The notes under the pieces are model-generated. The model saw nothing but the letters and a program-made list of their open reading frames with translations, did no database searches and was not told the DNA's origin. From Chrysomallon squamiferum (Eukaryota; Animalia; Mollusca), in the NCBI GenBank assembly GCA_012295275.1, contig CM022672.1, forward strand, positions 28,830,001 to 28,894,000: DNA of 64,000 nt. Reading direction: 5' to 3'. Within the stretch, counting starts at the first letter, position 1, and the number at the start of each line of letters is the position of its first letter. The translations under genes and the position numbers were made by a program. Positions 1,214-36,059 of the stretch are shown here, one piece after another.

Positions 1214-1660
1214 GTGATTTACAAATTTTTACCTCATTTAACTGAAACAAAAAACACATACATCTGCAATGAATAATTCTTCCAGTTTACTTTATTACTA
1301 TTATTCTGTGTACAACAGAACATAATTATGTATGATATGGACTTTCCATCTCTCTTCAGGAAAAAACACACAACAAAATAAATATTTAATCAAATTTAAA
1401 AAAAAAAAAGGATAAAACAAAAATATTAATAAAAAAAGTAATAAAATAAAAATGATAATGATAATGAATTCTTTTCTTGTTCTTCTTGTTTTTTTATTTT
1501 TTTCACTATTTCTTATTATCTTCAAAACTTCTCACAATAATTCATCAAATGTGCCTATGTGTACACCAGTCCAAAAACATATAAACAGTAAGATTTCCCA
1601 AATTTACTGTAATTTTGCACACAAAAAAGTATGTAACTGTGGATATCAGTAAACATTTGC

Positions 1661-2020
1661 TCATGGATGATGATGGTGTTTCCTCTGATGGTATCTCAGT
1701 CCATAATAGGATGAATACTTCTTGTCACACAGCTTGCACTTGAGAATCCCTGCATGTCCCATCAGATGATAGTCCAGATGACTCTTGTCAGAAAACTTGC
1801 TAGTACACAAATGGCAGTGGAGATAATTTCCAGAGTGAACTCGCATGTGTCGTTCTAAATTTGTAGTTTTTATTGTCTGATAGCAACATAAACCACACTT
1901 GTGGATCAACCGCGAGCCCTTTTCTTTGGGGTGTTTCACAAACTCATTATTATCTCCCCAACTGTTCAAAGAATATCCTTCCCTTCCCAATGAACGAATC
2001 ATGGATTCAGTTCTGTAAGT
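1661..2020 (-). CDS. Gene A alternative terminal exon A-V5: three C2H2 zinc fingers
   Basis: Minus-strand acceptor tttttatcttctgcag|ACT TAC AGA, phase 0; 360 nt open to TGA; fingers CGLC..HMRVH, CHLC..HLMGH, CKLC..HQRKH. Confidence 0.85.
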   Translation of the reverse strand, partial: TYRTESMIRSLGREGYSLNSWGDNNEFVKHPKEKGSRLIHKCGLCCYQTIKTTNLERHMRVHSGNYLHCHLCTSKFSDKSHLDYHLMGHAGILKCKLCDKKYSSYYGLRYHQRKHHHHP

Positions 2021-2054
2021 CTGCAGAAGATAAAAATAAAAATGGATATTTGTT

Positions 2055-2533
2055 TTTCCTTTTTCAGTTATTTGTTTTCAAAGAATGTTGATATGTTTGT
2101 TTCAAATGTAATAAGTTCTGATTTTAACACAGTAAATCTGAGCTGATACTTAATTATTGTTGTGTAACCATACTAGCAGTAAGACACAACTGAAATGGGA
2201 CATCTCTAGTATTAATGAAAAATAAATATTTGAATAAGAACAGTTTAAATATATTATCAATTCATTCTTTTTTTATTTATTTATTATTATTATTTTTTAA
2301 GCACTTTGGATTATCTATAAAGTAAAATGACAGAGAACTTGTATCACAAAAACATTTGTTATTAATTTATTTTTATGCAGATCTCTACATTCATGACAAT
2401 AATCTGTGTTCACATTCATGATGGATTCTTTGTTACTTCAGTACAACTAAACAAATAATACCATAACATCCCACTGTCACAGCAGTGCACAATAAATTTC
2501 TGTGAAAACATGCAACAGTATTTTCTTAGAACG
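2055..2533. repeat. ~480-bp direct repeat, copy 2
   Basis: Near-identical to 733-1213; lies between exons A-V4 and A-V5. Confidence 0.9.
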
Positions 2534-2602
2534 TCACCAGTATCCACAATTATTACTTTACGAAGGAAAAAAATATTTTTTTCAAATTGGACATGTCAAA
2601 GA

Positions 2603-2920
2603 TTAATGCTTGTGGTCAAATTTCTTATGACGACGTAGACCTGTATAGGATGTGTATTTTTTCCCACATACAGGACACATGAGCATTCCAGCATGACCTT
2701 TCAAGTGATAGTGCAGAGAAGTTTGACTGTTAAATCGTGAAGGACACATATGACACTTGAGATAATTTCCAGAATGTGTGATCCTGTGTTTATCAAGACT
2801 TGTTGTGTAGAAAGTCTCGTAACTGCATTTGTCACATTTGTGCAATGTCTTCCTCTTTACTTTCTTCCTTTTGTCATCACTTGCTGGACCGTTATTATCA
2901 ATCCAAAACTTTGTGGACGT
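2603..2920 (-). CDS. Gene A alternative terminal exon A-V4: three C2H2 zinc fingers
   Basis: Acceptor ctgctttattccacag|ACG TCC, phase 0; 318 nt to TAA; CDKC..HRITH, CHMC..HLKGH, CPVC..HKKFDH. Confidence 0.85.
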   Translation of the reverse strand, partial: TSTKFWIDNNGPASDDKRKKVKRKTLHKCDKCSYETFYTTSLDKHRITHSGNYLKCHMCPSRFNSQTSLHYHLKGHAGMLMCPVCGKKYTSYTGLRRHKKFDHKH

Positions 2921-3650
2921 CTGTGGAATAAAGCAGAACATGAACCTGTAAATTAACAACTGTACCAAACAATACAACACATTATTTTAATAATGTTTCA
3001 AAAGAATCCATTCTCTACCATCAAATCTCTAATATGAATAAGATGGAAACAGAGCAGACATGATACAACTTTCACTGACTGTGCAAAATCCTGCAGTCTA
3101 ATCTTAACAGTCACTACAACGACATGTACATACACAGCTTGGAAATACAATTCAGCAAGTTTTTCACTTCATATTACATCACATATTCACATTATTTTAC
3201 ATACAACTGAAATAATTTTGAATGAAAATAACAACAACAATAATAATAGTAGTGGTAGAAAAAGAAGAAAACAAATCTTTTGTAATTATTTCCAAGACCT
3301 GTTTGAAATCTATGTTAACACAAGTGTTAAAATTTATGCATTATAAATTTCTTTATTTTAAAATGTACTCACATATATCAAAGATAAAATATAAATTCAA
3401 ATAATAATAATAAATAAATTCAAAAAATGAAAAAAAGAGATTAAAACAGAAGTTTTTAAAACATAAAACTTTTAACTTTCTTGCATTTCTGCACTTCTGA
3501 TATTTAACATTTTTTCTTCTTCTTTTGAACTTTTCTTATTTCTGAATCTAAGGAATTATTTCATGCAGTATTGCAATGATTATAATAAATAACAACCGTG
3601 GATAGATTTAGATTGTCACCTAAAAGATTACAAATTAATACTGTTATTAA

Positions 3651-3977
3651 TTAATGATGTGTTTTTTTATGGTACTGTAAACCAGCAATTGAAGTGTATT
3701 TCCTGCCACACACATTACACATCAACATTCCTGCATGTCCTTTCAGATGGTATACCAAGTGACTTTGATCAGAAAAACGTCTTGGACACAGGTGACACTG
3801 CAAATAATTTCCTGAATGTATTCGTTTATGACGTATGAAATTTGTTCTGTAATTGGTCCGATAGGAACACTGATCACAATTAAACACAACACCAACAATG
3901 CCAGAGCTAAGCATTTCACTGTGAACTGATGTATCCATGTGTCTGTATGTTTGCATGTCCGGCTGCAGTGATGAAGT
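3651..3977 (-). CDS. Gene A alternative terminal exon A-V3: three C2H2 zinc fingers
   Basis: Acceptor ttcttgtcttctgcag|ACT TCA, phase 0; 327 nt to TAA; CDQC..HKRIH, CHLC..HLKGH, CNVC..HKKTH. Confidence 0.85.
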   Translation of the reverse strand, partial: TSSLQPDMQTYRHMDTSVHSEMLSSGIVGVVFNCDQCSYRTNYRTNFIRHKRIHSGNYLQCHLCPRRFSDQSHLVYHLKGHAGMLMCNVCGRKYTSIAGLQYHKKTHH

Positions 3978-4498
3978 CTGCAGAAGACAAGAATGAGCTG
4001 TATGAGTAAATTTCAAATGTTAAGAAGAAAGATCATGTGCTGCCTGTCTGCTTAACTTTCTTAACCTTTAGCTACTAATAAATATTATTTCTGCATAAAT
4101 AACAAAAATACATGTTTCATATATGAATTCCTGAAAAATAATATTCAAAAATAATTAATAAATTGATTACAGTAGTTTAGAATTACTTAAAATTCATATT
4201 TATATAAGACATTCTAATTTGAAAAACACATAAAATATTTTTATATGAACTATATTTTGTTAGCAGAGAATATCAATGTAAAGGGTTTTCTGATGGAAAG
4301 TACAATGACAGCAAGACCAGCAAACTAATATAACCAGTAAGTTAAATTGCCTTTTCTGTTAGTTTTATATTCCATAGAAACATTTAGTGTAAATTTAATC
4401 TAACAGGATGTTTACATGAATATGTAATCTAAGTTTTTGTTTATAGTATTGCTATTTCAGTTACTTCTCAATGAACTGTTGGTGTCTGCACAACTTAC

Positions 4499-4732
4499 AA
4501 GTCATCACAACAAACAATAATACCATCCTTTTTTGTCACATTATGACTGAATTCTAAAAGTCATCACAACAAACAATAATACCATTCTTTTTGTCACATT
4601 ATGACTGAATTCTAAAAGTCATCACAACAAACAATAATACCTTTCTTTTTGTCACATTATGACTGAATTCTAAGTCATCACAACAAACAATAATACCGTT
4701 CTTTTTGTCCATTATGACTGAATTCTAAAAGT
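4499..4732. repeat. Minisatellite, ~4 copies of a 56-59 bp unit
   Basis: gtcatcacaacaaacaataatacc(n)ttttgtcacattatgactgaattctaaaa repeated head-to-tail four times. Confidence 0.9.
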
Positions 4733-5104
4733 GGGACGAACATTTTGTGATGTTAGCTGTCTTCACAAAGAACAAATGTTCATTAAATTCAAAACATTTA
4801 TTCAGTAACAACAAAGCTTTTGGTTTTATGCTTTACACGCAAAGAAATACACAAATTAACAAATTATATAAAGACAAAAATGAATTTCACTTTAATGAAA
4901 TTATACAAATATTTTTTTATCAGAGTTATAATTGACAACAATTTCCAAACAATGATTATAAATTAATATCAGCTTTAATTTAAAAGTCATTCCTAAATTC
5001 TGAGATATGCATATAAACTGATATAACAACAAAGACACAGGTTTCAAGTACTGTTTATATTCAAAAGTATTAAACTTAAATATTTCTAATGTTTCACAAT
5101 TTCA

Positions 5105-5530
5105 TTAGGATGACTCCTTCCTCCTGTGTGCATACTGACATGTTCGTTCATGTACATATTGACCATTTTGAGTTTTAAAGGGTTTAAAACAGAATCTACA
5201 GAGCAGCTCCCCTCTGTGAGCTTTTATATGATATCTTAACTTTCCTTTATCTGTGAAATGTCTGGGGCACAGATGACAGTGGAAGTAGTCACCAGTGTGA
5301 GTACGCTGATGCCTCTTGAAGTTGTAAGGGTGTGTTGTCTGATAGTTACAAACTGAGCATGTCATAACTTTGCCAGACATGGACCTGTATTTGCAGTAAT
5401 TTCTTAATGTGTTGGAATATTCCTGGAAATCACCTCGGTCCACATTATGTGACGATGGATAACTGGATTTGCACCAAGCATCTAAGGTAAGAGAGCCACT
5501 CTGAGATTCATCTTGTTTTATGTCAGAATC
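5105..5530 (-). CDS. Gene A alternative terminal exon A-V2: three zinc fingers (C2H2, C2H2, C2HC; 'GEL' subtype)
   Basis: Acceptor ttcattgttttctgcag|GAT TCT GAC, phase 0; 426 nt open to TAA (DSDIKQDESQ...CSVC..HQRTH, CHLC..HIKAH, CRFC..HERTC). Confidence 0.85.
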   Translation of the reverse strand, partial: DSDIKQDESQSGSLTLDAWCKSSYPSSHNVDRGDFQEYSNTLRNYCKYRSMSGKVMTCSVCNYQTTHPYNFKRHQRTHTGDYFHCHLCPRHFTDKGKLRYHIKAHRGELLCRFCFKPFKTQNGQYVHERTCQYAHRRKESS

Positions 5531-7947
5531 CTGCAGAAAACAATGAAAATATTGGTTTCCATTTTTTCTGTCTTATTCTTTCAAAAAAAAAAAAAAAGAA
5601 AGATTAAAGAAAAGAGAAAGAGAGAAAGCAAATACAGACTAACACCTCGGAACAAAATCCCTTAAAATAATCATATTTTGATTGTGTATTTATATAATGT
5701 ATACTGCAGATAAAAAAACATGTATTTATAATATTAATGTGAAAAAGGCTTGTCATTTATTTGCTTTTAGTCTATGTTGCAATTATTAAAAGAGAATCAA
5801 GATCAAAACTTTATATATTTAAAAAATACAACTAGATTGCTGCTCACTGCAGGCAAAACTGACCAGAAAACTGTATGTCACAAATTATTACAACAAAGAA
5901 AGAAAACATTGCAATGTATTTTTAAAACAACTGAAGAACAATTGATCTTAGTCAACAGATTAATTACTGTCTAATAGAGAAGCAGTCTGCCAGCCTTGGC
6001 AATAGCTGGTATGACCCACCATGCACGAACAGTTTTAAAATGTTAATTCTCAGGTAGACTTTTCTTTGTTTTTATGGTTCCTAAATGACTGCTACAAATA
6101 TATGTTTTTAATTAATATGACCAGAAAAACACCAAAGATTGAAAAAGTTACGTTACTTAAAGAGTTTGTGGCTTAGTTAATCTTATGAGGAGGTCTAAAC
6201 CTCAGGTTTAACTCAAAAGTTCAGATATCTGCTGTAACAAGTGGTAATTCAGTCTGCTCATAGCCACTTACATTTATTTATATGTTAATTTCATGATTTA
6301 CAGTATACAGATAATGAAACAAAATTTATAACAAATACAATATATTACACTGTACAGCTCATATTAAGTGAAAATACTGGTATTAAACGTGCAGTGTGTT
6401 AGTCACTCTATTCTTTTTATATCTATAGTCACTGGTAATTATCTCTATGCTTCAGGTATCAGTAGATTTATATCAGCTGAGTAGTGCTCACTAAAAATTT
6501 GTAATTTACTTTGCTAAAGAACCATTTTGAGACTTATTGGCTTTTACTTTCAAAATGTGTCAGTAACAATGACTGATTAACTTAGATAATCCATAGTTTT
6601 ATTATTTCATTACATTTCACTGCTGAACAATGTTTTATCTGAAACTAAAAGTACAGATATATGTAGTTGTGTGTTGCTTTCTTTCTTTCTTTTCATTTCT
6701 TTTTTTCTGTAACAGCCAACTTACAAAAGTAGACAAAAAAATATATAATTTTAAATCTTTGAAAAATCTGAAAGAGGAGTTGTGAACAGACCCACTTTAA
6801 TCTAAAGTAGGAAGTAGGCAAAACTGAACAGAAAAAATAGAATTCCGTAGTCTACCAAAATCAACATTTAATTAATTTTGATCTACTTTTTAAGAAAAAA
6901 AGAGTATGAAATTTGTACAGCCACTATAAAAGTAGTCTTGTTACCTGATAAGCATTTTCTTGCCAGCTACCCAGACATAAAGGTTAGCATGTCTGATCAG
7001 TTTGAATCTCATGCCTGTGTCAATAAATCATTCAAATTTATTTCTACTTTATTTTATTTTTATTTTTTTTTATAAGCAGAATTTCACTGTATCCATATTA
7101 TGTGCAACAAACCATTGGCTGGGTTTTCCAAAATTTGAAATGTTACAGAGAATATTTGTGATGCCCAACTTGACCTACAGTTCAAGTATTATTCAAATAC
7201 TATAAAAATAAAAAAAATAATTTAAAACAAACAACCAAAAAAACATTTGTATGAGGAAGTCTTATTCCTGCATTTTTATAATATAGCTGCTTGTTTCCGG
7301 TAATTATTTTACAATAAAAAAAAATTCACCAATCAGTACTGTAATAATTTTCTAATTATTTTAACTAAAACTATATACAATTAGAAGATAATATTACGGT
7401 TAGGATAAATGTACAGATAGGCAGTCATATCAGTGATGTGAGACCAGAAAATTGATATCCAATGCAGACAATATTCCTAAATACCTATAACATTAATAAT
7501 CAAATCTTATTTTTATTATGTAAGTTGTATATTTTCACCAAACATTTAATTTCATTTTAATATGTCTCTAAAATGAATAATACACTCTCCATAATTACCG
7601 AAGAGAAAAGAAAATGTTTAATAATATTAATATATAAGACAGACTTAAGAAATATCGCACAAATAAAACATTAACACACCATTGATAAATTAAAGATAGT
7701 TATCAGTCAAAAAATAAATGCCTTTCCGACAACCTTCTTACAAACTAGATACTTATAACCCTGAAAATACTAACAAAGATTTCAAAATTAATTAAGAAAT
7801 TTATGTTAATGTAAAGAACTATTGTCACAAATTGACAGGCATTGTATGACTGGTGTATTTTAAAAATACTGATTTTTTTATTTATCTTTATTCAAATTTT
7901 AGACCAACAAAATAAGGCCTTATGTAAATAAAATACAGTTGGTTTAC

Positions 7948-8151
7948 CTACAATAGGTTGACGGAGGGTTTGTGACAATGCTTGCCCTTCATGAACAAAA
8001 GTTTGTCTCGCTGAATTATCCGACCCTTGCACTTCAATGCAGAATATTCATGACATTTCCAGTAGATAGTGGTGCCCAGTTTTGTGGGCATTACCTTGTC
8101 CCTTACATAACCAAATCCATCGAAAACCAGTTTCATAGTCTTTCTGTCAGT
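7948..8151 (-). CDS. Gene A alternative terminal exon A-V1: FLYWCH-type zinc finger
   Basis: Acceptor ttatttattttcgcag|ACT GAC AGA, phase 0; 204 nt; LVFDGFGY..IYWKC..(x6)CKGR..KHCH fits the FLYWCH pattern. Confidence 0.8.
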   Translation of the reverse strand, partial: TDRKTMKLVFDGFGYVRDKVMPTKLGTTIYWKCHEYSALKCKGRIIQRDKLLFMKGKHCHKPSVNLL

Positions 8152-9834
8152 CTGCGAAAATAAATAAGTTATAAAGAAAAAAGATTCACACAGTTTTGAA
8201 TAAACAAACTTTATTGACATTTATTACAATAATTTATACAAAATTAGTTTTCATCACAACTTCCAGATAAATAACAAAAACCAGTATTTTCCACCATTTT
8301 TATTAAAATTCTGTTTACAAAATTGGACATCCAATTAAGAATCAAGATCCATTTCTGATGTTAAAATCAGATTTAAATTCCAATTACTTATGATCAGCTG
8401 ACAACACCTTTGCAATTTTTTCAATCTTTACTAAATAAATTCTGATGTAACCTCAGATGCAAACTCTTGGATTTCAGGATGTATTTAAATCTGAATCACA
8501 TTAAGTGTATATATATATATATATATATAAAATTAATTTTAAGGCTTTCCTAATGTATGTGAAAGATACACTTCATGAATTGCATTAAGAATATGAACTT
8601 AAGAAAGCTTAGAAATCATTAAATTTCATGCAACTATTTGTATTAACCATAAATGAAATGAAGTTCAAGAATACAATTTCCATGACTAGTTTTATTATAA
8701 ATTTTGGATTGGAATGTCATGCTTATTTGCACATCTTTTCAGTTTCTCTGATTCTCTTTTTGGCACAACTAAGTTTTTTTTAAAATTATTTGTCTTTTGG
8801 TACTCTAGAAAATAATAATCATAAATAACACTGATAAAAATATCTGATTAACAAAACACCAGATATTGAATGCTGTTCTAAGTTCATTTAAAAGCAGTAC
8901 AAATCAGGTGCCAAGTGAGCTGTTGTTTGTAAGATACTTCAGAATTGAATAGGTACAAGTATAATACGTTCCTGCTGTTGGAATAATCATTAGCATCATT
9001 AATGGGTTTTTTAAATCTTTTCTATACTTGAAATAAGTTCAAATGTAAATGCTTACCTGTTATAAACTGAAAAGAGTTTTACTTAAATCTAAGTTGATTA
9101 GATAAACAAGCCTGACCCTTTCCAACAATTCAAGCCTTTTTTTGGACACTAGTCTCATAATTACTGTATTTAATTCACAGCATATGTAATATGCACATAT
9201 CAAGTAATTATCAAATTATTATAATTCTGAAAAGAAATCCCGTATCAATCAGTTTTACAAACTCGTTAATATTATTTACCATTTCCAAAAGGAATAACAA
9301 ACAAACAAACAAACAAACAAACAAATCAGTAAAGAATGAAAAATAATACAATCCTAATTTTGAAATTAAGCTGGTATTTTTTCCAATAGGCTGAAATACA
9401 TTTCTGAGGCTTCGAATTTTTGAATGCTAAAGCAATTTATAAATAAATGATAATTACATTGATAAATAAAATATAAAAACACTTTAATCTTTAATCATTC
9501 ATACAATGTTTTGAAACAGAACGTTTAATGAGTATAAAAGTCAGGTAATATATGTATTTCAAAAAATATACATGCAATACAGACAACAGGAAAAAAACAA
9601 GTTAATGTAAAAACTAAATAAAACTTTAATAATATTAGTCTAATAAATATATACTTTAAGTAATCTAACACTTAATATTCAAAAACTTTAGATACTTTAA
9701 AGTATTTTCCACATTAATTATCAGTGGCTGATAAGTCAGTATAAAAATAAATTATTATTATTATTATTATTTTTATCTTGAAGTATCTGAAATTATTTCT
9801 TCCAAACAGTTCAAAACAACTCTCTCACTGGTTA

Positions 9835-9885
9835 TAATGTGTATTCAAGGATGTCTGTTGGTGATCAGTCACATGACATTTACAG
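9835..9885. repeat. Left arm of ~51-bp inverted repeat (pairs with 13888-13941)
   Basis: Reverse complement ctgtaaatgtcatgtgactgatcaccaacagacatccttgaatacacatta matches 13888-13941 with 3 mismatches and one 3-bp indel. Confidence 0.8.
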
Positions 9886-11230
9886 TGGAGTGCAAATACG
9901 TATGCACATATTAACGAGCATAATTAGTATACATGCATGTAAAATTTTGTGCTTGTCAATTTCGTAATCTTTATGATAGGATACATAAACACAGGCTCCA
10001 CCTCAGTGAACATGGTGTACAAAGTGTTGATTTAAGGGTATGTAGAGTGTTGATGTCTTCATGTATTTTGGTGTACATAGTGTTTCTGATCAATATACTG
10101 TACTTAGAGAACATACCACAAAAGTAACTGATTTAACTGACTTGTTTGATGCAATTTACTCAAAGGACTACTATAACTATCTCCTAATGTTTATAAAATG
10201 TTAAATAATGGTCATATTTTTTTCTTTTCTTATCAGGCTTCATAATACACAATGTACCAGTGTTATTATTACATAGAGAAACAAAACACCTTCCACGATA
10301 TTTTGAAGTACATTAAACAGAAGCATCGTATGAAACAACATCTTTGATATGTCACCCTGCAGGACATTTCACAAAGCATTCGCTTCCTCAAAATCAAAGA
10401 AAAAACACTGCAGTCACCTTTAGAGGCTATCCCTGTTAAATGTCATAAAACTGATGCAGAACCCTGTAACTCCACATCAAACACAAATCAATAAAACACA
10501 TGCATACGCTCAGACTGATCAACTACATGTATTTGTTGACAATCAACTCCTATCTGAGGAGGAGGTAGATATTTGAAAACAAATATGTGCACATTTACCC
10601 ACTTTCCTGTCTGAAATTAGCAAGTCAGGACTTTTAAAAGAATGGAACTGCATTATCCAGTTGATAGGTCAGTCTTGTTTTTCCATGAATAATCTTGCAT
10701 ATCTGCTGTTTCTGGAGGTTATTAGGTGGTTTTCCCAAGAGAATACATGTGCAACTACGTACTGCCATAAAGTTAACTATATTTGAAAATTGGCCACTAT
10801 TCTACAACAAGCATCTGACATGGATCTGGAAGATGGAACATTCAGTGCAGCAGCATCTTCAATTGCGGGCTGCTGTCAAGTATTGCTATCAACTACGTGC
10901 AAGTGAATAAGAAAACCTGAAAGAAATCAGGTTTTAAAAAAAAGCATGTTTTGACAAATATCTGGCATGGACTGGAAAAAGTGGAAAATGGCACTGTTTC
11001 TCAGTAGTATTCAGACATCTTTGTACAAACAGGCACCTGCATCAATGATCTTCGACAAGAAATGTGTGCATCAATTTCAGTAACATCATACCTACTTTTG
11101 AATGGTTAAAAACAGACAATGCAGTGAAACAGTTGTTGATCTTGACATGCAAGACAACTTTTTTTGCTTGGTTGGATTTGACGAAAATATGGTTGCACAA
11201 AGCCAATGCCAGTCAAATATCTAGAGCAAG

Positions 11231-11790
11231 TTTATTAAATAGAGGAGTCCACTATGGTTCAAACGTAAAAGTGCCCCTAACAGGCAGCACATTGTACAAG
11301 GTCCTTAGTCTTGAAAATCTTAAATCTCAAGTTACTCAATTTGAGACAAAATTCTTGGGATAAGCAGAGCCAGAATGTTCTGATGAATCTAAAGTTTTTA
11401 TGCAGCATGGGGTAGACAATGATATCAACACTGTAGCTACAACTGTTTCAAAATTATTACCTGCCTTTTATCCAGCTCTTACATTGTTTGAAGATGGATG
11501 CTCCTCTCTTAACATAACGGGAAACCTGTCTGCATTGTAATTGCTGATGGAAGTCTGCACAATGAGAAAGGCAATGATGTCATGGGAATAGAAATTAAAT
11601 ATCATAATCCTCAAAATATTTACACACTATCGGGTATGTACATGGTCCAAAGGTATTATGTACCCCAGCTTCTGTTGGAAATGAAGATTTTAAGAGTAAA
11701 GAAACTTCTTTTTGTAAAATTCACACCAGAAATGTCAACAGTTCTATGAGTATCATTTTCAGAATAACTTTGGCAAAAATATGGTCACAA
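11231..11790 (+). pseudogene. Decayed YqaJ/lambda-exonuclease-like PD-(D/E)XK nuclease, probably transposon-derived
   Basis: Manual translation across stops and frameshifts gives IK*RSPLWFKR..LTGSTLY..MQHGVDND..ADG..IEIKY..RYYVPQLLLEM..LLFV, i.e. the QRSxxW, LTGS, MxHG, (S)PDG, EIK and YYxQ motif order of YqaJ. Confidence 0.7.
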
Positions 11791-12619
11791 TGAAATAAAT
11801 GTATGCAATTACTGAACTCTGTACATCATTCATAAGCATTGTAACAAAGTTGCCTCCCATGAGAATTAATGTTAGATACTAAGCTATTTGGTTTTATACA
11901 TATTACACATGTATTCTATTTATATTTTCCACGAACAAGTATTACATAAGTAACTGACTTATATTTTCCGAGGATTTTACATGCACACTTCAAAGGTTAA
12001 AGTGTATCCTGTAAAATGTTTAACTGAAGCCTGAGAGGATGAAAGTGGACAACTCAGTTATGGATGGACAGCTCTATTCATATATACAAAAATATATATT
12101 CACCCAGAATATATATCATTACACACTGATATACATTCATTTTATTTTACTTTATTTATCCTTTAAACATTTAAGTGATCACCATTTTGATTAATCTGGA
12201 AAAACAGAAAGAAAACTCCAAAGCATTCGTCAATCACACCCGTATCACAGCCAGCTAAAGGAACACTTGTAGTGAAGTCTGAACAACATCATTTTAACAA
12301 ATCAAAGATTCCGTCACATATTAGAGAAGGAATAGATTGTTGTAGATGAGATACTAATAATCACAGTTGGAACATTTATTGTGTTTTAAGACCAACAAAC
12401 ATATATCTCAGACAAGTTAGAAATAGCTCAAAATTAGTTTTTAAAAAAGCTCTACAAGTGGTTTCTTTTAAGTAAAAGGGAAAGACGACTAAATTTTTAC
12501 AAGATAACAACACCATTTCTATATACAAAAAAAATAATATATAATAATAAGAAATAAATAAATGAAACACTATGATCTGAATGACATATTTATTTTGATA
12601 TAGCCTGACATTTATTTTT

Positions 12620-13281
12620 TATGTTTTGTAATTCCAGATCAATTTCTGACCACAATGACATCTGATTTTTGGATCACCATGCATAATTTTAACATGGCCT
12701 TTTTAAATGGCACACAGTTTTGCAAAAGGGGTCCTGGCATGAAAATGTCTTCTTTCCAGTGCACTGTTTAACATGTCTTGCCAAATTACAATTTTTATTG
12801 AAAGACTTTTTGCATACTTTGCATATGTGAGGCTGCTATGTTATATGAGTTGACTGATGCACCTGGAACAAATCACGCTAGTGATATCCTTTGTTGCAGA
12901 TATTGCAGGTAAACTGGTATTTTTTGGAATGAGTTTTATAATGTAGTTTTAGACCCCACCTGGATTTATACTTGCCACCAAATTCTTCACAAATGAAGTT
13001 GTGGGCACTAACTCTATGACTTCTCATTTGTTCTGCTGTCTCAGACATTTATGAACTACGATGTATCAGCTCCTGGCTACTGTGTTTCAATAGGATGTGA
13101 TGTTTGAAATTGGAGTTTACTGCAGTTTTGTATCCACAATGACAGCTGTAAAATTTAACAGGTTGCCAGATTTCTTTAACTGGTGGAGGCTTTAAAGCTG
13201 TCGATGTGGAAAATCCTAGATGCTCTGATTCATCCAGGAAACTCCCCAGAAGTCCACCTGTCTCTGATATATTCATGTCAT
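12620..13281 (-). pseudogene. Decayed multi-zinc-finger coding segment
   Basis: Acceptor ttttatattacag| at 13281, ATG at 13276; frame continues past in-frame stops: FICEEF..GLKLHYKTH, FTCNICNKGYH*..H..H, CKVCKKSF..LARHVKQC, then a frameshift to HGDPKIRCHCG. Confidence 0.75.
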
Positions 13282-13887
13282 CTGTAATATAAAATTAAAC
13301 TTTGTTACTATGTGAATGAAACCTATTGAGAATTGGACAAGTCTGCATAAAATTTAAATAAAATTCATTATAAAATTTTAATTGTCAGAATAGTTTTTAC
13401 TGAAGATAATGCCTGCACTTAATTATATAATGTAATGTCTTGCAAAAGTAACCTTACTTTAAACTAAAACAGCAACAAAAAAGTAAAACATTGATAAACA
13501 GTACTCCATACACCAATCACCAACACTCCATATGCAGCAATATTCACAATTTTTTGTAATAACTAACTTGCATATATTGGCTTAATGTTAATATACAAGT
13601 ATTTCAGCTAACTCTGTGTATTATTTAACACAATAATTTTTATTATTTGATTGGTAACGACCTTTTCATAACAGTAACTGTCATCGATTTCACTTAATTA
13701 TTATGTACCATTCGGTGCTTATGCTTTTTGTCAACAGGCCTTACTTATTTCATGCTGTATATTATATACTGCAATATAAGTTTAGAAGCAAGAAGTAGAT
13801 TATAGGTATTTATTAAGAAATTGATTAATTTCAAACTTAAAACAACAAAAATTTCACCTACCAGATGAAGGGAAATGAGCTCCTTTG

Positions 13888-13941
13888 CTGTAAATGTCAT
13901 GTGATTGACCACCAACAGTTGACATCCTTGAGTACACATTA
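13888..13941. repeat. Right arm of ~51-bp inverted repeat (pairs with 9835-9885)
   Basis: ctgtaaatgtcatgtgattgaccaccaacagttgacatccttgagtacacatta. Confidence 0.8.
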
Positions 13942-16900
13942 CACTTTTGCTGCCATTTGACTAATAAAAAAACTGCACATAGTTTATTTTAAAAAACCAT
14001 GAAAGGAGGTATTGTGTATATTTTTGTGAGGTGGTATGTGAAAGATTCACTGAAAATGTATAGCAACCTCAAGTACTTACTTACATATATTTAAAACAAT
14101 ATCATTTCAGATACTTGCAAAATAGGCAGCTGCCCAGTGTGCTGATTTCAGGGAGAGCATTTCTCCAAATCAACAATAGTTTTGAAAAATAAATAAATAA
14201 AGATCAGTTTTAATGAGGGTCGTTTTTTATCCTGTTCTATTTCATACTGGGACAAATAATCAGGTAGATTCAGGCTGACTGGAACAAGCAAAACAGGTGA
14301 GTGAAAATTGTGCATACATGAAACTTACAGGACGTAATTATGTTTGCATGTTTTTAAAGGCCATGAGTTTTTCCATAGAATCACACATTATACAAAACAT
14401 TTAGTTTGCCGCAAAAACCAAACTGAGGGCAGTAACTCCTTATTTTAATGGTATAAACAAGGTAAGAAATTGTCCCTGACAGCAAAATCTTGCCTCTAGA
14501 GATCGCAATAAATAATGCTGAAAATAAATGTTTTAAAAATATTGTTTATAAATTCTGAAACTGATATTTTCCGGGGGTGCCAGAATCAAACCATGCCTAG
14601 GGATGTAGATAGCCTGGTGCAGGCGCTGTTCACAGCAGTCTTCATTTGATCACAAACTGCAATTCCTTTTTTGCTGCCCATTGTGTTCACATAGATCTAC
14701 AGAGCAATCAAGAATTGACCAAAAAGCCTTTATTCTAAAACCTTTGATTTTTAAATAATTTGTTAGGAAGTTCGAAAGTTTACACAGTATAGCTGTTCAA
14801 TTCAATTAATAAAAATAAAAATAAAAAAATTAAAGATGAATCAAAAAATATATTTGCTAAAAACCACAGTCTATATATATAGCATTCTCATAAATACATT
14901 TTATCTTATATAACAGCATAACATTTATGATGTTTACTAAGGTATATTGACAATTAATCAATGTTTTTAAAATCAGAATTTATAATAAATAAGTAACTAA
15001 ATAAATTATTTTTCAAAAACTGAAAATTTACTTTTCTTTTTTTCTTTCTTTAATTTCCTGTCAGTATCAGAAATAATCCAATTTTCCTTTGGACAAGTGT
15101 TGTATGGATTTTACTAAAACAGATTCCTATAATACTATATTACAATACAAATGCTGACGTTTGTATTTACACTTATGTAAATCATTGTGTGTTACCAATT
15201 ACAGCAGCCAAAATGTTATAATTTATATATATTTTCATTTTTACTTAATACAGAACTTTTGAATACAAACACAAGAAAAGTTTGTTATAATATCTTGCTT
15301 ACTTAGTGAGTTACATTTTGAATACTGACATCAAAGTGGCAACATCAGCAAATGAGCTGAGCCATTTTTAGCCACTCATAACAAATATTAAACTGATTAA
15401 TTAACAAATTACTGTGATCATACCTTGATATCTGTTTTACAAGAAATATGCCACAAATTTTCAAAGCTGAAAATGTCAACTCCTGAAACCTGAGAAAAAC
15501 AACAATGTGTAATTTTCTGGAATTTAAAAGCCTGAAAGTACTCCACATAGAGAGCACCTGTTATTTATTTTTTTGACAATGATACTAGAATTGTCTAATA
15601 CAAAGAAAAAGGCCAAAGTGACTAATGTGGGACGTGAACAGACAACTACAGTATGAAAACATACAAAAGGATGTAACTTAAAAATATCATGTCTTTTGAA
15701 TGAATAAAGAAAATAAACTATTTTGTCATTAACTGCAGTTTCAAACATTTCAGTGTTGAGCTAAATTTGAATCTGGCATTTGGTAACATCTTGTTGAGTC
15801 GGAACACTGGGAAATCTGCTTGCAAATCTATGCATGAAGGTCATTAAAAGGAAGGGGTTCACTATCAATGACAAGATCAATGGTAGGATTTTAACAGAGA
15901 GCATCAAAAGAAGAACTTTTCAGTACTGCTTAAGTAAGTTCATTTTCTTCTGAAAATATCCAACTAATTTTCCCAGGTGGCTGGAGGAAGAAAGACAGCT
16001 CAATGTCATTGTCATTTTGTTCTTCTGTTATGATGTTCTTTTCAATCTCATTCACAAGCTGTACCAAGGTGTCTCTCCACAGAACTTCATCCCATGTTTT
16101 GTTTGTATGTAGCTGCTCTTTGAGGAGATACTTTTGTATTACAAGCTTATAACTGAAGGAAAAACTGTATCTTCTTTCAAGGAATACTCTGCTCATGTCT
16201 GAATATATATAGCATCTTCTGGAAACAAACACCCACAAAGTCAGCAGTAGTACAGACTGTTAGCATTACCAGTTTCTGTGTGTTTTTGGGGATAGGCAAT
16301 ATGACTTTTGTAAAATTATCATCTTCTGGAAACAATTACACAACTGAAGTAAAAACTGTCTTTAACTAATCTGTTATACTTAAACAATTCTTAGTTATTT
16401 GTTTAAGTCAGACTACATAAATGAACTTACAAAAAAAAAAAAATCATTTGATTAAACAATAATATGTTCCCATACCATAGATATATTTTTAATTAAAACA
16501 ACAAAATTCTATTTAAAAACCATGTAACTGGAATGTGATACATGTTTAATTAATACAGACAGATGGAAAGCCAATTTTACATTATCAATATATTCAAAGA
16601 AAATTTTAATTTTTGAAATAGTGATTAATGTTTAAATTAGTTAGCTATATATGATATTTTCAGAATGTTGTAAATGAACATCACTGTTAAATATATCTAT
16701 ACCAGAAAATAACAGCTGTACCTGTAATTTTAAAATATTAACAATTTTATTGGCAGTGAGCCTTTGTTAGTAGAATAGTATAACAACAAAATATTGATAT
16801 CTTGCAATTTCAGGGAACCCTTTTTAACCTTTGGAGCTGCAGCCCTAATACCATCATGAATAACATACTTAACAAACAAAAAAAAATAAAAATAAAAATA

Positions 16901-17951
16901 AAATAACACAAATTATTCAGAAGAAATATATATAGAACTTTTTTCTACAATCCACTTGATGACACCACAGAGATGGCTTCAAAGAAGCATGAAATAAGAA
17001 TATGTTTTGTCATACCATTTTTTACTGGCCTCCTGTATCAATACTACTATCACTAAGCTAGACATACAGATAATGTAATAAAGCCATTGTTTCATTGTTC
17101 AACAGAACAAATCCGTTAAAATAAATAAATAAAAATATCCCAGGTAATAAATACTTTAAATAATCAAATCAACATAATGTAAGCCAATAACTGTATATTT
17201 TATTATCAGACATGTGAAAAATGATAATCAGATATTGAAACAATCCAACAGAACATTTTAACACAAAATGAAGAGATACACTGTTATGAATTTCATTATC
17301 AAGGAAAATCATCACTGATGAATATATATTTAAAAATAATACAGTATTTTCTGACATTTAGGTTCAGAGAAAACATATAAAGAAAATAAATTATCGAAAC
17401 CTTTCCTTACAATCTTACTATACCTGACGTTTGGGACATTAAAAAAAAATGTATTACTACTGAATGCATTTTTAGTCTTTCATGTAGTAAATAAACATTA
17501 ACTATTCTTGTGTTTCAAAGTACTCATAAACAAAAATGCATGCTTCATTTTACTTCCTTCAGAGATTTAGGGAATAAAAAATAATAATCATAATGTTTTT
17601 ATGACACCATTATTTTATCTGAACACCATGATATGCAAATTTATTATTCCAAGTTCTGATAAAACATTTTAACCTGTAATATTAAAACTTTCTAAACAGT
17701 TTCTTGTCCACTAATCCAAAGAGTTTAAAAGAAAAAAAAATAGACTTCTGTGAAATTCAAAGATCAAAATTATTTCAGACCAGCAAACGTTTAAAGTACA
17801 AATAATCCAGTCTTTTTAACAATATTTTTTCATATGCTATGTTAGTTTCATAACTTTACAAAACATTTTCTAGCTTTATTTTAAATCTTGCTGTTTAAAG
17901 ATGGTGTCATGAAAACATTAGATATAAAAACCCTGAAAATTATCACTATAC

Positions 17952-18322
17952 CTGTGCAAACTTGGGCTTGCTGGTTGTTGGTTGTGTCTGTGTGTTCCAA
18001 GTCGAGTCTGAAACATTGGAGTCAGGAACACCAAAAGTTACTTGTAGCTGAGCAAGATCAGAATTGTCCCCACCATTGTCTGGACTGTCAAGCAATACAA
18101 TGTCATTAACCTCTTTTTTAATTTCAATGTTTTCTGGCAAAGGTAGACGAATGCTTTCAGATGTGAGAGAAATGGATTGATTGTCACTGTGAACTGAGTC
18201 ACTAGATGATGGCTTTGTTTCTGTCTCACAAACACTTTTTAAAGTGTCACTATCTGCTTCAGATATAGGATTAATCCTCGTTGCTGCATTAATAAGAGAA
18301 TCTAAATCACCATCTGTCTTAT
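17952..18322 (-). CDS. Gene A constant coding exon 2 (Ser/acidic linker), last common exon
   Basis: Acceptor ttttgatttcag|AT (phase 1, completes G+AT=Asp); donor CAG|GTATAG phase 0; 371 nt; homologous to 26970-27385 (SESIRLP.PE, ND.V.LDSP). Confidence 0.85.
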
Positions 18323-20114
18323 CTGAAATCAAAAAGATGCAAAACTTATTATTGCATTAAATGTTTATCCCATTATTGCTAGAATAAACTAAAAAACATT
18401 GCTTTGCCATGTAGAGATGTCACAATTGTAGAAAAACAGCAGCACCCATATAAAATTGGAAAAAGTACAACATAAAATAAAAAAATGCAGCAAACATTTA
18501 GCAGGTACTGACACCACAATGCACTCCTGTCAAAAGAAAAAAAACTGCCTTTCCTTAACTCACTAGAGATACATTCCTGCTCAAAGGAACATGTAAAGTG
18601 TATCACAAAAAATAGCAGTATTTCCTTTTTTCCAAAGCATTGCTCGTTATTATTTTGATGAAGTCATGCCATGATTTCCTGTGCATTGTAAAATGCATGT
18701 GATACAAGAAGGCTGAAATATGCTCTCATCTGAAAAAGCATAGATTCTGTCTTTAAACTGAACAATTTTTTTTTTTATCTTCCCTATCTTATCATGAAAA
18801 AAAATTGATCTTTGATGAATCATATGTTTTGAAAAGAGCAATTTCTACACTTTCTAATAAACACTAAGATTATTCTGATAGCATTATGATTTAAAAAGAT
18901 GTTCCCTTGTTCATCAGAAATGATCTACACTAAGCAAATGGATAGAAATGAGTTATGGAGGAAACTGTAAGTGACAATTTCATTTTATTCTGGTGATTAA
19001 ATTGTGTACTTTTTTATAAAAGCTTTTCTTATGATTCAAAAAAAGTATTAGCTGAAGGAAATGAACAGAGTTGGCATATATTGACAGTTGTCAGATGTCA
19101 AACCAAATAATTCACATGTGAAACAGGAAAATGCTTAAAACTTGGTAACACCCCTGACAAATTCAAAGTGAAATATACTTAGCTTTATAATAATGTTTCT
19201 CTATTAGAATAAGCTGGTGAAGTGAACTATATCTTGCCTTGCAGATAAGTTAAGTCATTTGACACCCACCTTTCCAGGCAATATATCCAACTATGTTTAT
19301 ATTTGAAGTATATTCCGTAACATATCTTTATACAGCTTTTTCATTGTAAAGAAAATGATGTTTGAATCATAAAAAAGGGAGTATAATTATACATTTTATT
19401 ACATTTTAAAATACTGAGAGAAAATGCCATCCAATTTTAAGACCATTTGCGATAAACTGGTAACTTAGATCTCAGCATGGGATAACTCTGAAAAGAAATA
19501 AGCATTATCTTATGTTAATTGCTTGAAGTCTGGATGTTTTCAAGTTTTGTGTATAATATGAGCTGCCAAAAAGCATTTTCTCAAAACAAAGGGGTTTTTT
19601 TTTGTTGTTTTGACTTTGAGGTTTTAAAAATGTTTTTTTTTTCACTGAATAACTGGATAACATTATCAGCTGTAACTTTTGAATAAAGATAGAAACACCA
19701 ATTTTTCTTCTTTTAGTGAAAAGAACTCCAACACTGGAAAACAAGTACAGTTGTTGTTCTAGATGTATTTTTGGGTGCCAGTTCTTAACTTAGATTATTT
19801 TTTATTTTTTTATCACAAAAGTCATCTTTCAGTTTTAGTTGTTTCTTTTTAAGTATTTGTTCTGTAAATTTGCAAAGAAAATAAAAATATTATAATGCCT
19901 GTGTAAATTATAACAATTGTATGTAACACCAAAGACCTGGTAAAGAAATTAAATTAACTTGGTTATACAAACTCTGCATATCCATTTATATCTATTTTTA
20001 CTGATTATACCTATAGAAATAAACACAATTATTAAATTAAGCTTTAAATATTTTGCATTAAATTAAAATCATAGTAATCTAAACATCTTATTTTTTAATA
20101 CACTTAAGTTTCAC

Positions 20115-20859
20115 CTTTTTTCACTAAAGGCCCGTCATCTGACTTGGTTAAATTTCGCTTTTGACTTTTTATGACATCATTACTTTGGTTGTCTTTAACA
20201 AACGGGCCTGTATCTACATTATCAAGAACATCATCAGTTTGATTTGTAGAAATCTGGATTGAATGCCTGGGCTGAATTTCCATAATCTCCTGGTTATCAT
20301 GTCCTGAGGCATGTGAATCATAAGAATCTGAATGTTTTTCTGCCATCTGATTTGGTGCTCCTGCTGCAAATGAGGTTCTCTTGTTTGAAGACATCAATGG
20401 TGAATGACCTGATATATTATTATGAGGTTGTGAGCTAGGTGACTTAGAAAAACCAGAGGTTAAATGATGTGAGTTAGCTGTCCTTTGTCTGAAAGATGAT
20501 TGTAGAACTGTATGATGTGATGACCGTGGTTCAGGACTATGTCGAAGATCTATTGTTACCTCCCTTGAGGATGCAATTCCTGCTGCCTTGATATTGGTAC
20601 TGTCTCTAACTACATCTCTCTTCTGAGGTAATCGTTTCATAGTTTTGAACGCTTTTACACAGTAACTCTCACTGATGACATCACCAGTGTTGTGAACCAT
20701 CTCACTCAAAACATAGCGTTCTTTTTTGTAATTGTCTATTTCTAAAGAAAGGTAACCACTCAGTTCCACTGCCTGTTCAAACTCTATATAGTCTCGACAG
20801 AATTTCTGCATTGCTTCCACAAACTTGGTGAAGAACTGGACAGAATATTGTTTATCCAT
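20115..20859 (-). CDS. Gene A constant coding exon 1: conserved 78-aa N-terminal domain plus disordered region
   Basis: ATG at 20859 after acceptor ttttttcag| (exon start 20891); donor AAAAAAG|GTGAAA phase 1; first 78 aa are 75/78 identical to gene B. Confidence 0.9.
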
Positions 20860-22514
20860 TTTTCAATAAATTGGTCAGCTCAAAGAAAATGCTGAAAAAA
20901 AATAAATTAGTTAACAACTATAATAAATAAAATACATTTTCACTACTATTTTTCTCTACCTTTTTATAAATATATAAAATTTCAACAATTTTATTTTAAG
21001 AAATACCATGTTATCATTTGGTAAGCAAATGTAAGTTCACTATTCTGTTTAGTTTCTTTTGAGTTTATGCAATAAATATGTTAGACCTGATTATTATTTA
21101 TGTCATAAGACTTAAAAAAAAAAAAAAAAAAAATTTCAATAAAGTATAAATTTATAAAACAACATTCATATCTAAGACCACAGTTTGGATTTGAATATCT
21201 GTATTTAATGAAAACAGTTTAGAATGCAGTTAAAAATTATTTTCAGTTTACTCATACTGTTATAACTCTGTAGTTAAATAAACAATGATATTAATAAATA
21301 AATTGAAAGTCCAACCCAAAATATTTTTATTTTACTTATTCAAATTTCACTTTAACTTGATAGGTTTATTCATTGCAGGTGGAAGATTAAATGATAAATA
21401 TCTTTTGCATTTGGAAATACAACATTTCAAAATAGGAAAAAACACTGGTATTTAAGGGAAAAAATAAACTGAAAAATGCATCCTTTCTAATAATATCTGT
21501 TCATAAGCTACCTACCGTATTCTTTTATTTACTGACATGCCTACTTTAATTATAATTTTGTTGTTGCTGTTTTTAACATATCTATAAAAATTAATATAAA
21601 AAAAGAAAAACTTAAGACCTCTGGACATTTTATTTATATATGTTGCTGCCAACTTCACTGGCTAAAAGTCTTAATTAATTTTATTTCAAGATCACGTTCC
21701 ACAGAAAATCAAGGCCAAGTGGAACGGTCATGGTTATATACATTTAATTATACTACTTCAATATAATAATAATAATATGATGATGATGATAAAAATAATA
21801 ATTAATTATTAAGGAAACAAACAAACACATACAACACCAGTCCGATTTAGAATCTTTATCTAATTATTAAGTTTAATTTGATCCACAGGAAGCCACAGAA
21901 CAAATCTCTGATGATGGATGCCATTTATGATTTCCCCATTTGTAACCCAAAAAATCAAAATTTTTCAATGTTGTATATCCTTAACTTTGTAACTATTCAA
22001 ATTTTCCACTCTCAAGGAATAAAATAAAATAAAATGTTCCAGCAAAATATGACTGGATCAGTTAAAACCCATTTGGTAACTTTACACAAAATGACCCTAC
22101 CACTATATTACGGCATTAAATTGATTAATGTTCAAAATCTGAAGTAAATTTGCACGTGCATATGTATAAAAATAAGCCTTTTAAGTTTTACTATTAGCAC
22201 TCAAATTTTTTTTTTTTTACTGAAATAATAATAATAATAATAATAGTAATAATAATAATAATAATAAAGAGTAGAATATAAATAATACATATTTTTTTTT
22301 AATTTCTTTTCACATTCATCAATTAATCATACATAACACTACAGTTAATTCAATAATAATGTCAATGATATTCATATTGACATTGCTCAAGTCTACCGGA
22401 ATGGATTCTTTATTTTTGTCGCAACGTAAAGCTCTCATTTACAATTTGTTATATTTAGAAAGCATAATAAGCATAGATAATTAATCTAACAACTGCACAA
22501 CAGATTACACATAC

Positions 22515-26048: not shown

Positions 26049-26679
26049 ATGGATAAACAATATTCTATCCAGTTTTTCACAAAATTTGTGGAAGCAATGC
26101 AGAAATTCTGTCGAGACTATCTGGAATTTGAACAGGCAGTTGAACTAAGTGGTTATCTTTCTTTAGAAATAGATAATTATAAGAAAGAAAGATACATTCT
26201 GAGTGAGATGGTTCACAACACTGGTGATGTCATTAGTGAGAGTTACTGTGTAAAAGCCTTCAAAACTATGAAACGATTACCTGTTAGAAACAATTCAGAC
26301 ACAGTGCTCAGAGATAACACAAATATCAGAAGATCATCTGGTAAAGAAGTGACAGTAGATATTCGAGATAGTCCTGAACATCAGGTTTCCTCATACAATT
26401 CACATCATGGTTATTCTCCAACATCACAGCGTCATAATGTGTTGGGGAGGCGAGCACCAGCATTTGCTGCTGGTAGTGCATCTCAGGTTACTGATGTACA
26501 AAATCGTACATTAAATGTTGCAATGCAGATTCAGCCAAGACAATCACAGTTTTCAAGTTCAGGAATGACAACTGATGACACAGTGCTAGTAACAGTTGGA
26601 GATAGTAAAATGGGTTCTGGTGTGAGAGGGCAGAAAAGAAACAATTCACAATCAGAAGAATCACCTCTTCATAAAAAAG
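26049..26679 (+). CDS. Gene B constant coding exon 1: conserved 78-aa N-terminal domain plus disordered region
   Basis: ATG at 26049; donor AAAAAAG|GTATGT phase 1 at the same protein position (PLxKK|) as gene A. Confidence 0.9.
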
Positions 26680-34895: not shown

Positions 34896-36059
34896 AATGT
34901 TTGTTGTTATTAGTCACACCTAATTACTTAAATAAACTGAGTTTATCATATATTTATTTTTATCAGATGTTTACCATTTAGTGTGGTTCTTGAAGGAAGT
35001 ATGATGGTGAAAGTTTATTTTAAAAATACTAGATTAAAAACTAACCTTTTATTTTCTCAAGATATATTTCATATTTTAAGGTGCATTGTTATTCATCAAA
35101 AATTCATTCAATGCAGTTATTAATTATTTCCCATTAAATTAGTATTTTGACAGAAAGTAATGGTTTTCTCCTGTTTTAATATATTTTTTAAAAAAGTCTT
35201 AATCATTTTATGTTGCATTTCAATTTAATATTTATGAATTAGACAGCTCTAATAATGTTAGAGGATTGATTGATTCTGTAAAACATTCTCAGGATTTTTA
35301 CATTTAAGTGAAAATATTTGGTGTTGAGTAAGATCTACCAACTTGAAACTGTCGTTATCTTTACAGGAACCAAAATAGGCAGAGTGGCATACAGTTGTCA
35401 GTTTTTGCTGAAATTTTGTTTTGTCACCATGACAGATGCTTTTAAAATAACAAATATATTTATGAAATAAAACAGGAAAGAAGTTCCTTGTAATCAAAAT
35501 AGATATCATCAGATAATCTGGTAAGTTAGGTGTCACACAGAATTAAAACAAAAGATTGAATATGCAAATACTTTTGTAAAACAGTTGGACAACAACAACT
35601 GTGAAATTGTTGCCTTACAGCCAAATTTAACATTTCAGAATCTTTGACCAGCTTGTCATAAGCTGACATAATTCTACCATTCATAAATATATATATTTTA
35701 TTTTTTTAATTTTTTTAATAACTTACAGCAAACTAATCCTGAGATTGACTGGGTTTTTTTTATTTTTGTTTTTGTGGCTACAAAAAATGTTCTTTCTGTT
35801 AATCTCATCCAAAAGCACCAGATTAAACAGGTTAATTGAAGTGTTTGTGACTTAGTTAATCTTACTGAAGATGTCTGTACCTCTGTTTTTAAATCAAGAA
35901 GTACACAATACATTTGTTGTTATAAAAGTAATATTTTTAGAGGGAAGTTGCTGACATTAATTTAAAGATATTAATTTCATGATTTATTAATGAAAAACAA
36001 AACAAAAAAAACAACAACAATTTATAGCTTACTGTATTAATTACTCCTTATTTCTGCAG

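Follow-up and report, generated by a model that had tools for sequence, protein, structure and literature searches.

A conserved, spliced FLYWCH terminal exon beside C2H2 cassettes in a multi-cassette gene of the snail Chrysomallon squamiferum

The 64,000-nucleotide stretch of contig CM022672.1 analysed here (the window; positions 28,830,001 to 28,894,000 of assembly GCA_012295275.1) contains two divergent paralogous genes, gene A on the minus strand and gene B on the plus strand (Table 1). The constant part of gene A closes with a phase-0 donor at 17952 (CAG/GTATAG), and its cassette array runs toward the window start, with all cassettes collinear and on one strand. The cassette acceptors are all in phase 0, at 8151 (ttttcgcAG/ACT) for an exon encoding a FLYWCH finger, and at 5530, 3977, 2920 and 2020 for exons with three C2H2 fingers each. 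An initial annotation of this DNA placed the FLYWCH exon among the C2H2 exons; it belongs to the same array, but lies between the constant exons and the four C2H2 exons, and is therefore the first intact cassette rather than a middle one. From the coordinates, the FLYWCH form of the protein is 439 residues long (372 + 67). Two further features were observed in the introns. Broken minus-strand frames without a Pfam match, covered by RNA contigs, occupy 15933-16335 in a gene A intron and are perhaps another decayed element, and a 138-nt repeat occurs in the introns of both arrays (6091-6223 and 35777-35905, 74% alike).

Table 1. Features of genes A and B in the window
Feature	Position	Strand	Evidence or remark
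First constant coding exon of gene A; conserved family domain, lacking a Pfam match, in its first ~76 codons	20115..20859	-	
Second constant coding exon of gene A, acidic/Ser-rich linker, ends in common phase-0 donor	17952..18322	-	RNA pieces 17952-18322; joints 18322 to 20115 and 17952 to 3977/8151
Phase-0 AG acceptor with polypyrimidine tract, similar to the C2H2 cassettes	8152..8181	-	Sequence; used in RNA
Coding portion of alternative FLYWCH terminal exon (67 aa and stop)	7948..8151	-	Translation; Pfam PF04500; RNA joint to 17952; G. aegis X12
Two AATAAA, candidate poly(A) signals, 55 and 65 nt past stop	7877..7892	-	Region AT-rich
C2H2 x3 alternative terminal exon	5105..5530	-	Pfam zf-C2H2; joint in 1/4 runs; G. 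aegis P0023 68%
C2H2 x3 alternative terminal exon	3651..3977	-	Joint to 17952 in 4/4 runs; G. aegis P0022 71%
C2H2 x3 alternative terminal exon, splice predicted	2603..2920	-	G. aegis isoform P0029 63%
C2H2 x3 alternative terminal exon, splice predicted	1661..2020	-	G. aegis isoform P0003 69%
Gene B, divergent paralogue, then ~17 short C2H2 exons whose acceptors are in phase 0	26049-62355	+	

Five sequencing runs contain the FLYWCH exon, four of them RNA runs from a single study, and the runs were chosen for containing this stretch. Contigs of runs X1-X4 were aligned to 1400-21300, which takes in gene A only, and 15 of 21 joints were listed. A joint between 17952 and 8151, with CT..AC ends, was present in X1 (depth 10.4) and X2 (3.1) and absent from X3 and X4; it was carried by short contigs with 27 letters on the short side and 92% likeness, a type of joint for which the alignment tool advises caution, at the RNA level and in one study. 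From the same donor, the cassette at 3977 was reached in all four runs and that at 5530 in one of them, while 20115 was joined to 18322 in all four, and one contig covered both constant exons together with the 3977 cassette. The joints of gene A all have CT..AC ends and fall at sites that had been predicted from the sequence beforehand. The libraries cover the gene A intron too; since the joint at 8151 is canonical, in frame and exact in position, it is unlikely to have arisen by chance. The cassettes at 2020 and 2920 had no joint among the 15 of 21 listed, at low depth, and contigs ran on across the acceptor at 2020 in X2-X4 and across that at 2920 in X2 and X4. Because one donor serves several phase-0 acceptors and every cassette carries its own stop, the tails are mutually exclusive, and gene A joins common exons to mutually exclusive 3' exons. 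The splicing of the FLYWCH exon to gene A, for which the initial annotation had proposed the junction 17952 to 8151 as a check, was thus recovered in two of the four runs.

Read on the minus strand, 8151 to 7948 translates into 67 residues and TAG, in agreement with the 68-codon phase-0 terminal exon first described, and the motifs named at that time are all in the peptide: L..GF.Y (as LVFDGFGY), YWKC, CKGR and HCH. The proposed FLYWCH identity was upheld by the Pfam profile PF04500, which the peptide matched at 52.3 bits (E 6.2e-14, profile positions 5-62 of 62) against a gathering cut-off of 23.6 bits. The four zinc ligands (C33, C41, H58 and H60) are all kept and, together with W31, are invariant or near-invariant across 22 alignment rows. 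The finger of human FLYWCH1 (2rpr) was a sequence match (E 9e-6), and it was also the top PDB structure match (E 6e-4, TM 0.70), followed by WRKY domains, of an AlphaFold model of the tail built on the 22-row alignment (pLDDT 89.7). By profile, ligands and predicted fold, the product of this exon is a member of the FLYWCH family, and its model has the WRKY-GCM1 type of beta-sheet fold, like human FLYWCH1. The window has a single frame of the pattern W.C..C..H.H, and none was seen in 20 dinucleotide shuffles. Neither tblastn nor a local profile found other FLYWCH exons in the 64 kb, and a word-index search with the peptide for longer proteins gave four candidates, none of them significant, the G. 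aegis isoforms being concealed within protein clusters.

The gene A orthologue in the vent snail Gigantopelta aegis is LOC121384031, with constant exons at 61% and 64% and the four C2H2 cassettes at 63-71%. Its gene models (RefSeq predictions) comprise 14 isoforms, 11 with C2H2 and three with FLYWCH tails. Isoform X12 (XP_041370123.1) combines the orthologous constant region with the orthologous FLYWCH tail, joined at the same residue and in the same phase. Together with the RNA joints, these isoforms bear out the earlier proposal that one constant region uses tails of both kinds. The X12 tail is identical to that of exon 8151 at 50 of 67 positions (76% by tblastn), so that it is more conserved than any of the other four cassettes and than the constant exons. 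Another pair with FLYWCH tails, X13 and X14, has no match in the window; the counterparts of these two further tails may lie beyond the window start. In a third species an orthologous exon (P0186, 64%) lies on what is apparently the same contig as five constant-domain proteins, the longest contigs of both being equal in length. By these sequence comparisons, the FLYWCH exon is older than the divergence from G. aegis.

The low contig depth, and a joint present in two of four runs, would suit an isolated, non-functional transposon fragment spliced by accident. We give this reading almost no weight, because a conserved G. aegis isoform and splicing to gene A show that the exon is no stray piece of a transposon. 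The open frame with all of its ligands is kept in three species, the splice point and phase are the same in G. aegis, and the FLYWCH identity exceeds that of the neighboring cassettes. The isolated fragment that the initial annotation had set against its own proposal, lacking a profile match or splicing to gene A, is contradicted by the Pfam match, the RNA joint and the G. aegis isoform.

Genes A and B belong to a family defined by a front domain of about 76 residues, which is carried by 209 of the 306 proteins retrieved and has 22 invariant positions in an alignment of 41 rows. Its nearest named relatives are in G. aegis (96-99%) and in abalones. The copies at 20632-20859 (minus strand) and 26049-26276 (plus strand) and those of four G. 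aegis paralogues are 96-99% identical to each other, whereas the remaining constant regions of the same paralogues are only 45-72% alike; this near-identity reflects either strong constraint or gene conversion. Grouped by constant region, and among the matches listed, G. aegis has at least 11 clustered paralogues with the front domain, all on a contig of one length, with at least 8-20 tails each. Across the family the tails are of the C2H2, FLYWCH, pipsqueak/CENP-B, BEN and DUF3504 types, according to a census whose labels come from local profiles seeded on Pfam-scanned tails, two of the seeds being just below the cut-off. Mixed arrays include C2H2 with FLYWCH (gene A), C2H2 with DUF3504 and tails of no known type (gene B), C2H2 with pipsqueak and tails of no known type, C2H2 with pipsqueak and BEN, and pipsqueak with BEN. 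FLYWCH tails occur in one of the 11 multi-cassette G. aegis genes among the matches listed. The abalone relatives retrieved have tails of DUF3504 or no known domain and no cassette arrays, in a retrieval that may miss diverged paralogues; this points to growth of the arrays within the peltospirid lineage. Two G. aegis genes (LOC121383032 and LOC121383526; P0101-P0109 and P0099) split the BEN domain itself, with a common first half and many alternative last halves, and thus have a nested level of cassettes. Family tails P0011, P0018 and P0041, of 120-215 residues, have no Pfam match and are likely to be further binding or interaction folds.

In the initial annotation, one constant region was thought to sample two unrelated DNA-binding folds. 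The C2H2 and FLYWCH folds are distinct, the latter being of the WRKY-GCM1 type by its model, but two is an understatement for a family that adds pipsqueak/CENP-B, BEN and DUF3504. The word unrelated is also too strong, since passages of Babu et al. (PMC1702500) unite FLYWCH with the WRKY, GCM1 and MULE binding domains and propose its descent from C2H2.

Constant exon 1, which carries the front domain, matched no Pfam family at E values up to 1, and the profile of the front domain matched no PDB sequence at E values up to 10. BTB had no Pfam match in 15 family members at E values up to 5, and a search of the Atlas with the front domain gave no usable match. The AlphaFold model of the domain is weak (pLDDT 62.7); with it, Foldseek found no match, and VIA reached a best Z of 4.5 on generic helix pairs, with none at Z of 5 or above. 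A homodimer prediction scored 0.00, having been run without an alignment, and counts neither way. By sequence, then, the front domain is not a BTB domain, though it may have a remote kinship to some known module. Its position and conservation suggest that it is a protein-interaction module.

The initial annotation saw in this locus an echo of mod(mdg4), and the echo is sound in architecture. Both have common 5' exons followed by one of many 3' exons, with FLYWCH as a variable tail, and the constant regions are similar in length (372 residues in gene A, 402 in Mod(mdg4) according to a passage of PMC5666082). The snail constant region, however, has no BTB match, its cassettes are all on one strand, and it belongs to a mollusc rather than an arthropod. 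FLYWCH tails are also a minority, in one of the five window cassettes and three of the 14 G. aegis tails. In mod(mdg4) they are found in 27 of 31 variants according to a part of 10.1101/2022.01.16.476534. With lola the snail gene shares an array in which most variable exons are short sets of C2H2 fingers; C2H2 is given for 17 of 20 lola isoforms in a passage of Bonchuk et al. (PMC11426971). It differs from lola in lacking a BTB match, in having FLYWCH tails in the same array, and, in G. aegis, in its clustered multi-cassette paralogues. Human FLYWCH1 and C. elegans PEB-1 resemble the snail tail as FLYWCH proteins by profile, ligands and predicted fold, but the snail finger is a single, swappable last exon and not a tandem array or a fixed domain. 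In its way of working the gene resembles mod(mdg4) and lola, but the absence of a BTB match from the front domain means that it belongs to neither, and convergence is the best reading of the likeness.

Common ancestry with mod(mdg4) and lola would instead make the front domain a BTB domain diverged beyond recognition. The tail folds are those of insect TTK-BTB proteins (C2H2, FLYWCH and pipsqueak; PMC1702500 and PMC11426971, in part), passages of PMC1702500 describe the acquisition of FLYWCH, pipsqueak and BED domains by insect POZ proteins, and the constant regions are alike in size. Nevertheless, we judge this ancestry very improbable, given that the conserved part is only about 76 residues long, that BTB had no match in 15 members (E up to 5) and the profile none in PDB (E up to 10), and that the abalone relatives retrieved have neither the cassette arrays nor tails beyond DUF3504 or no known domain. 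Passages of Bonchuk et al. (PMC11426971) also state that no TTK motif or TTK-type BTB was found in Mollusca. In the literature searched, which omits most subscription papers, we found no published description of the snail cassette system. Transposon-derived factors in molluscs are listed in PMC10027918, in passages that do not mention cassette arrays, although its supplements could list such genes.

The initial annotation also suggested that the exon was recruited from a transposon. For this there is no local support. The stop comes seven codons past HCH, the three frames downstream are closed over 2.3 kb when searched by eye for a transposase, and no terminal inverted repeats were found enclosing the exon, although old repeats could have decayed; the only strong inverted pair (9835-9885 and 13888-13941) leaves it outside. 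A FLYWCH search of 1.84 billion representatives gave 70 matches, mostly multi-FLYWCH proteins. Two of the 70 carry the Pfam MULE domain, by a count that short transposase fragments escape, two are not FLYWCH proteins (a kinase and Sushi repeats), and one could not be assigned to a family at the cut-off applied. Several short matches look like N-termini of transposases by their motifs. Those of P0216 and P0218 are 50-51% identical over the matched part, and their cluster mates continue to a DGTFK motif. Among non-orthologues the nearest are near-tied, with scores of 122 and 121 for two bivalve host proteins and 119 and 118 for transposase fragments. We built one tree from 74 queried rows (72 with the domain, of which six were removed for an incomplete motif and 66 kept) and a second from 25 hand-picked rows. 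Both, over 60 columns, placed the five snail exons with the two bivalve host FLYWCH domains, outside the transposase clade, at supports of 90/76 and 77/71, neither of them starred. An AU test of the exons grouped with the transposase clade gave p values of 0.13 and 0.19, so that the alternative is kept and the trees do not settle the matter.

From the trees and the near-tied scores, we read the exon as an old host cassette, and what ties it to Mutator transposases is probably the ancient link common to the entire FLYWCH family. Direct capture of a 5'-terminal piece of a transposase gene of the Mutator-like (FLYWCH-MULE) type, inserted in the array of a peltospirid ancestor, is possible but distinctly the less likely course. 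It would account for P0216 and P0218 being among the nearest non-orthologous single FLYWCH domains, it is compatible with the AU test, paralogues carry other transposase-type tails (pipsqueak with a Tc5 HTH, and DUF3504), and a decayed element with terminal inverted repeats lies in the same gene A intron. The early stop without a downstream transposase frame or flanking repeats, the grouping of the five exons with C-terminal FLYWCH domains of bivalve hosts, and the rarity of MULE among the 70 matches argue against it. The snail exon shares the finger with FLYWCH-bearing MULE transposases, but has no catalytic domain, is C-terminal, uses a host acceptor and is kept across species.

The two bivalve host proteins, P0226 (Mactra antiquata KAL4232813.1) and P0239, are 430-470 residues long with one C-terminal FLYWCH and are the top-scoring matches after the orthologues, but their front domain does not align with that of the snail family (hhalign probability 0.05%). 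In P0226 it looks SRF/MADS-like by predicted structure, below the bar for naming, and Atlas links connect this type of front domain to mollusc clusters named 'isoform X14' or 'isoform X18' with C2H2 tails. There is thus a hint, resting in part on a model, of a second multi-cassette family, one with an SRF/MADS-like front domain.

The decayed DNA element spans 4.1 kb (9835-13941) in the last intron of gene A, 1.7 kb from the exon, and has 54-nt inverted repeats that are 89% alike. Its broken plus-strand frames at 10424-11790 have no Pfam match and may be nuclease-like. A broken minus-strand multi-C2H2 frame in the element (13294-12692) resembles the long family C2H2 tails P0045 and P0046, and is a possible source of cassettes.

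The reading that we consider highly probable is that a conserved, spliced last exon swaps FLYWCH for a C2H2 triplet on the 372-residue front of gene A, likely producing several chromatin-binding proteins with different targets, by a design most likely independent of fly mod(mdg4) and lola. In each transcript the donor at 17952 is joined to one of several phase-0 acceptors, and competition among splice sites and poly(A) sites may determine the choice of tail. The near-invariant front domain would take the role of BTB as interaction module. By analogy with PEB-1 and Mod(mdg4), the FLYWCH finger may bind DNA or a chromatin partner; for Mod(mdg4)-67.2, a passage of PMC5666082 describes help in protein recruitment, by a mechanism unknown, rather than demonstrated DNA binding. 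Different tails could then direct the protein to different targets. Any module that landed downstream with a phase-0 acceptor could enter the array, which would explain the mix of transposase-related folds.

Splicing is presumably in cis, since the gene A cassettes of the window follow one another collinearly on a single strand. Trans-splicing of separate transcripts, with cassettes perhaps common to gene A, gene B and other paralogues, appears unlikely. It is true that the layout is that of two trans-spliced fly loci, mod(mdg4) and lola, in which a U1-binding motif drives the process according to passages of PMC4387717. Gene B, whose two-exon tail (61131, 61532) matches G. aegis P0046, could also be taken to favor it: none of the only three isoforms retrieved for the G. 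aegis orthologue matches the short, plus-strand three-finger cassettes of the window, which are either a lineage-specific expansion or used by another partner. Against trans-splicing, pseudo-donors with at least nine U1 pairs numbered three in the first 2 kb of the last common intron, compared with 2.2 in shuffles (35 of 100 as high), and 13 in the whole intron, compared with 8.4 (six of 100 as high), without clear enrichment. No strand-changing joint occurred among the 15 of 21 listed for the gene A region.

A bolder version would give vent snails their own mod(mdg4)/lola system, in which a new multimerising front domain, a dozen or more clustered paralogues, arrays that trap transposon modules (FLYWCH, pipsqueak/CENP-B, BEN and DUF3504) beside C2H2, trans-splicing and hetero-oligomers would together form a combinatorial set of chromatin-architecture proteins, with bivalves having done likewise on a MADS-like front domain. 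We regard this as speculative, and as rather improbable in its entirety; cis-spliced exchange of tails in gene A remains the reading that we prefer.

The plan of a constant domain with swappable tails, FLYWCH among them, has been described from arthropod TTK-BTB genes (PMC1702500 and PMC11426971, in part). Automatic names such as 'myoneurin-like isoform X10' mask the cassette system in the snails, and its analysis brings to light a conserved 76-residue domain without a Pfam family. With the snail genes there is another system for finding out if arrays of this kind depend on trans-splicing and on a multimerising hub. That a mollusc has the same design built on another front domain, with similar tail folds, suggests that it is a repeatable route to larger transcription-factor repertoires, and that it may also be a way to take in transposase-related binding modules.
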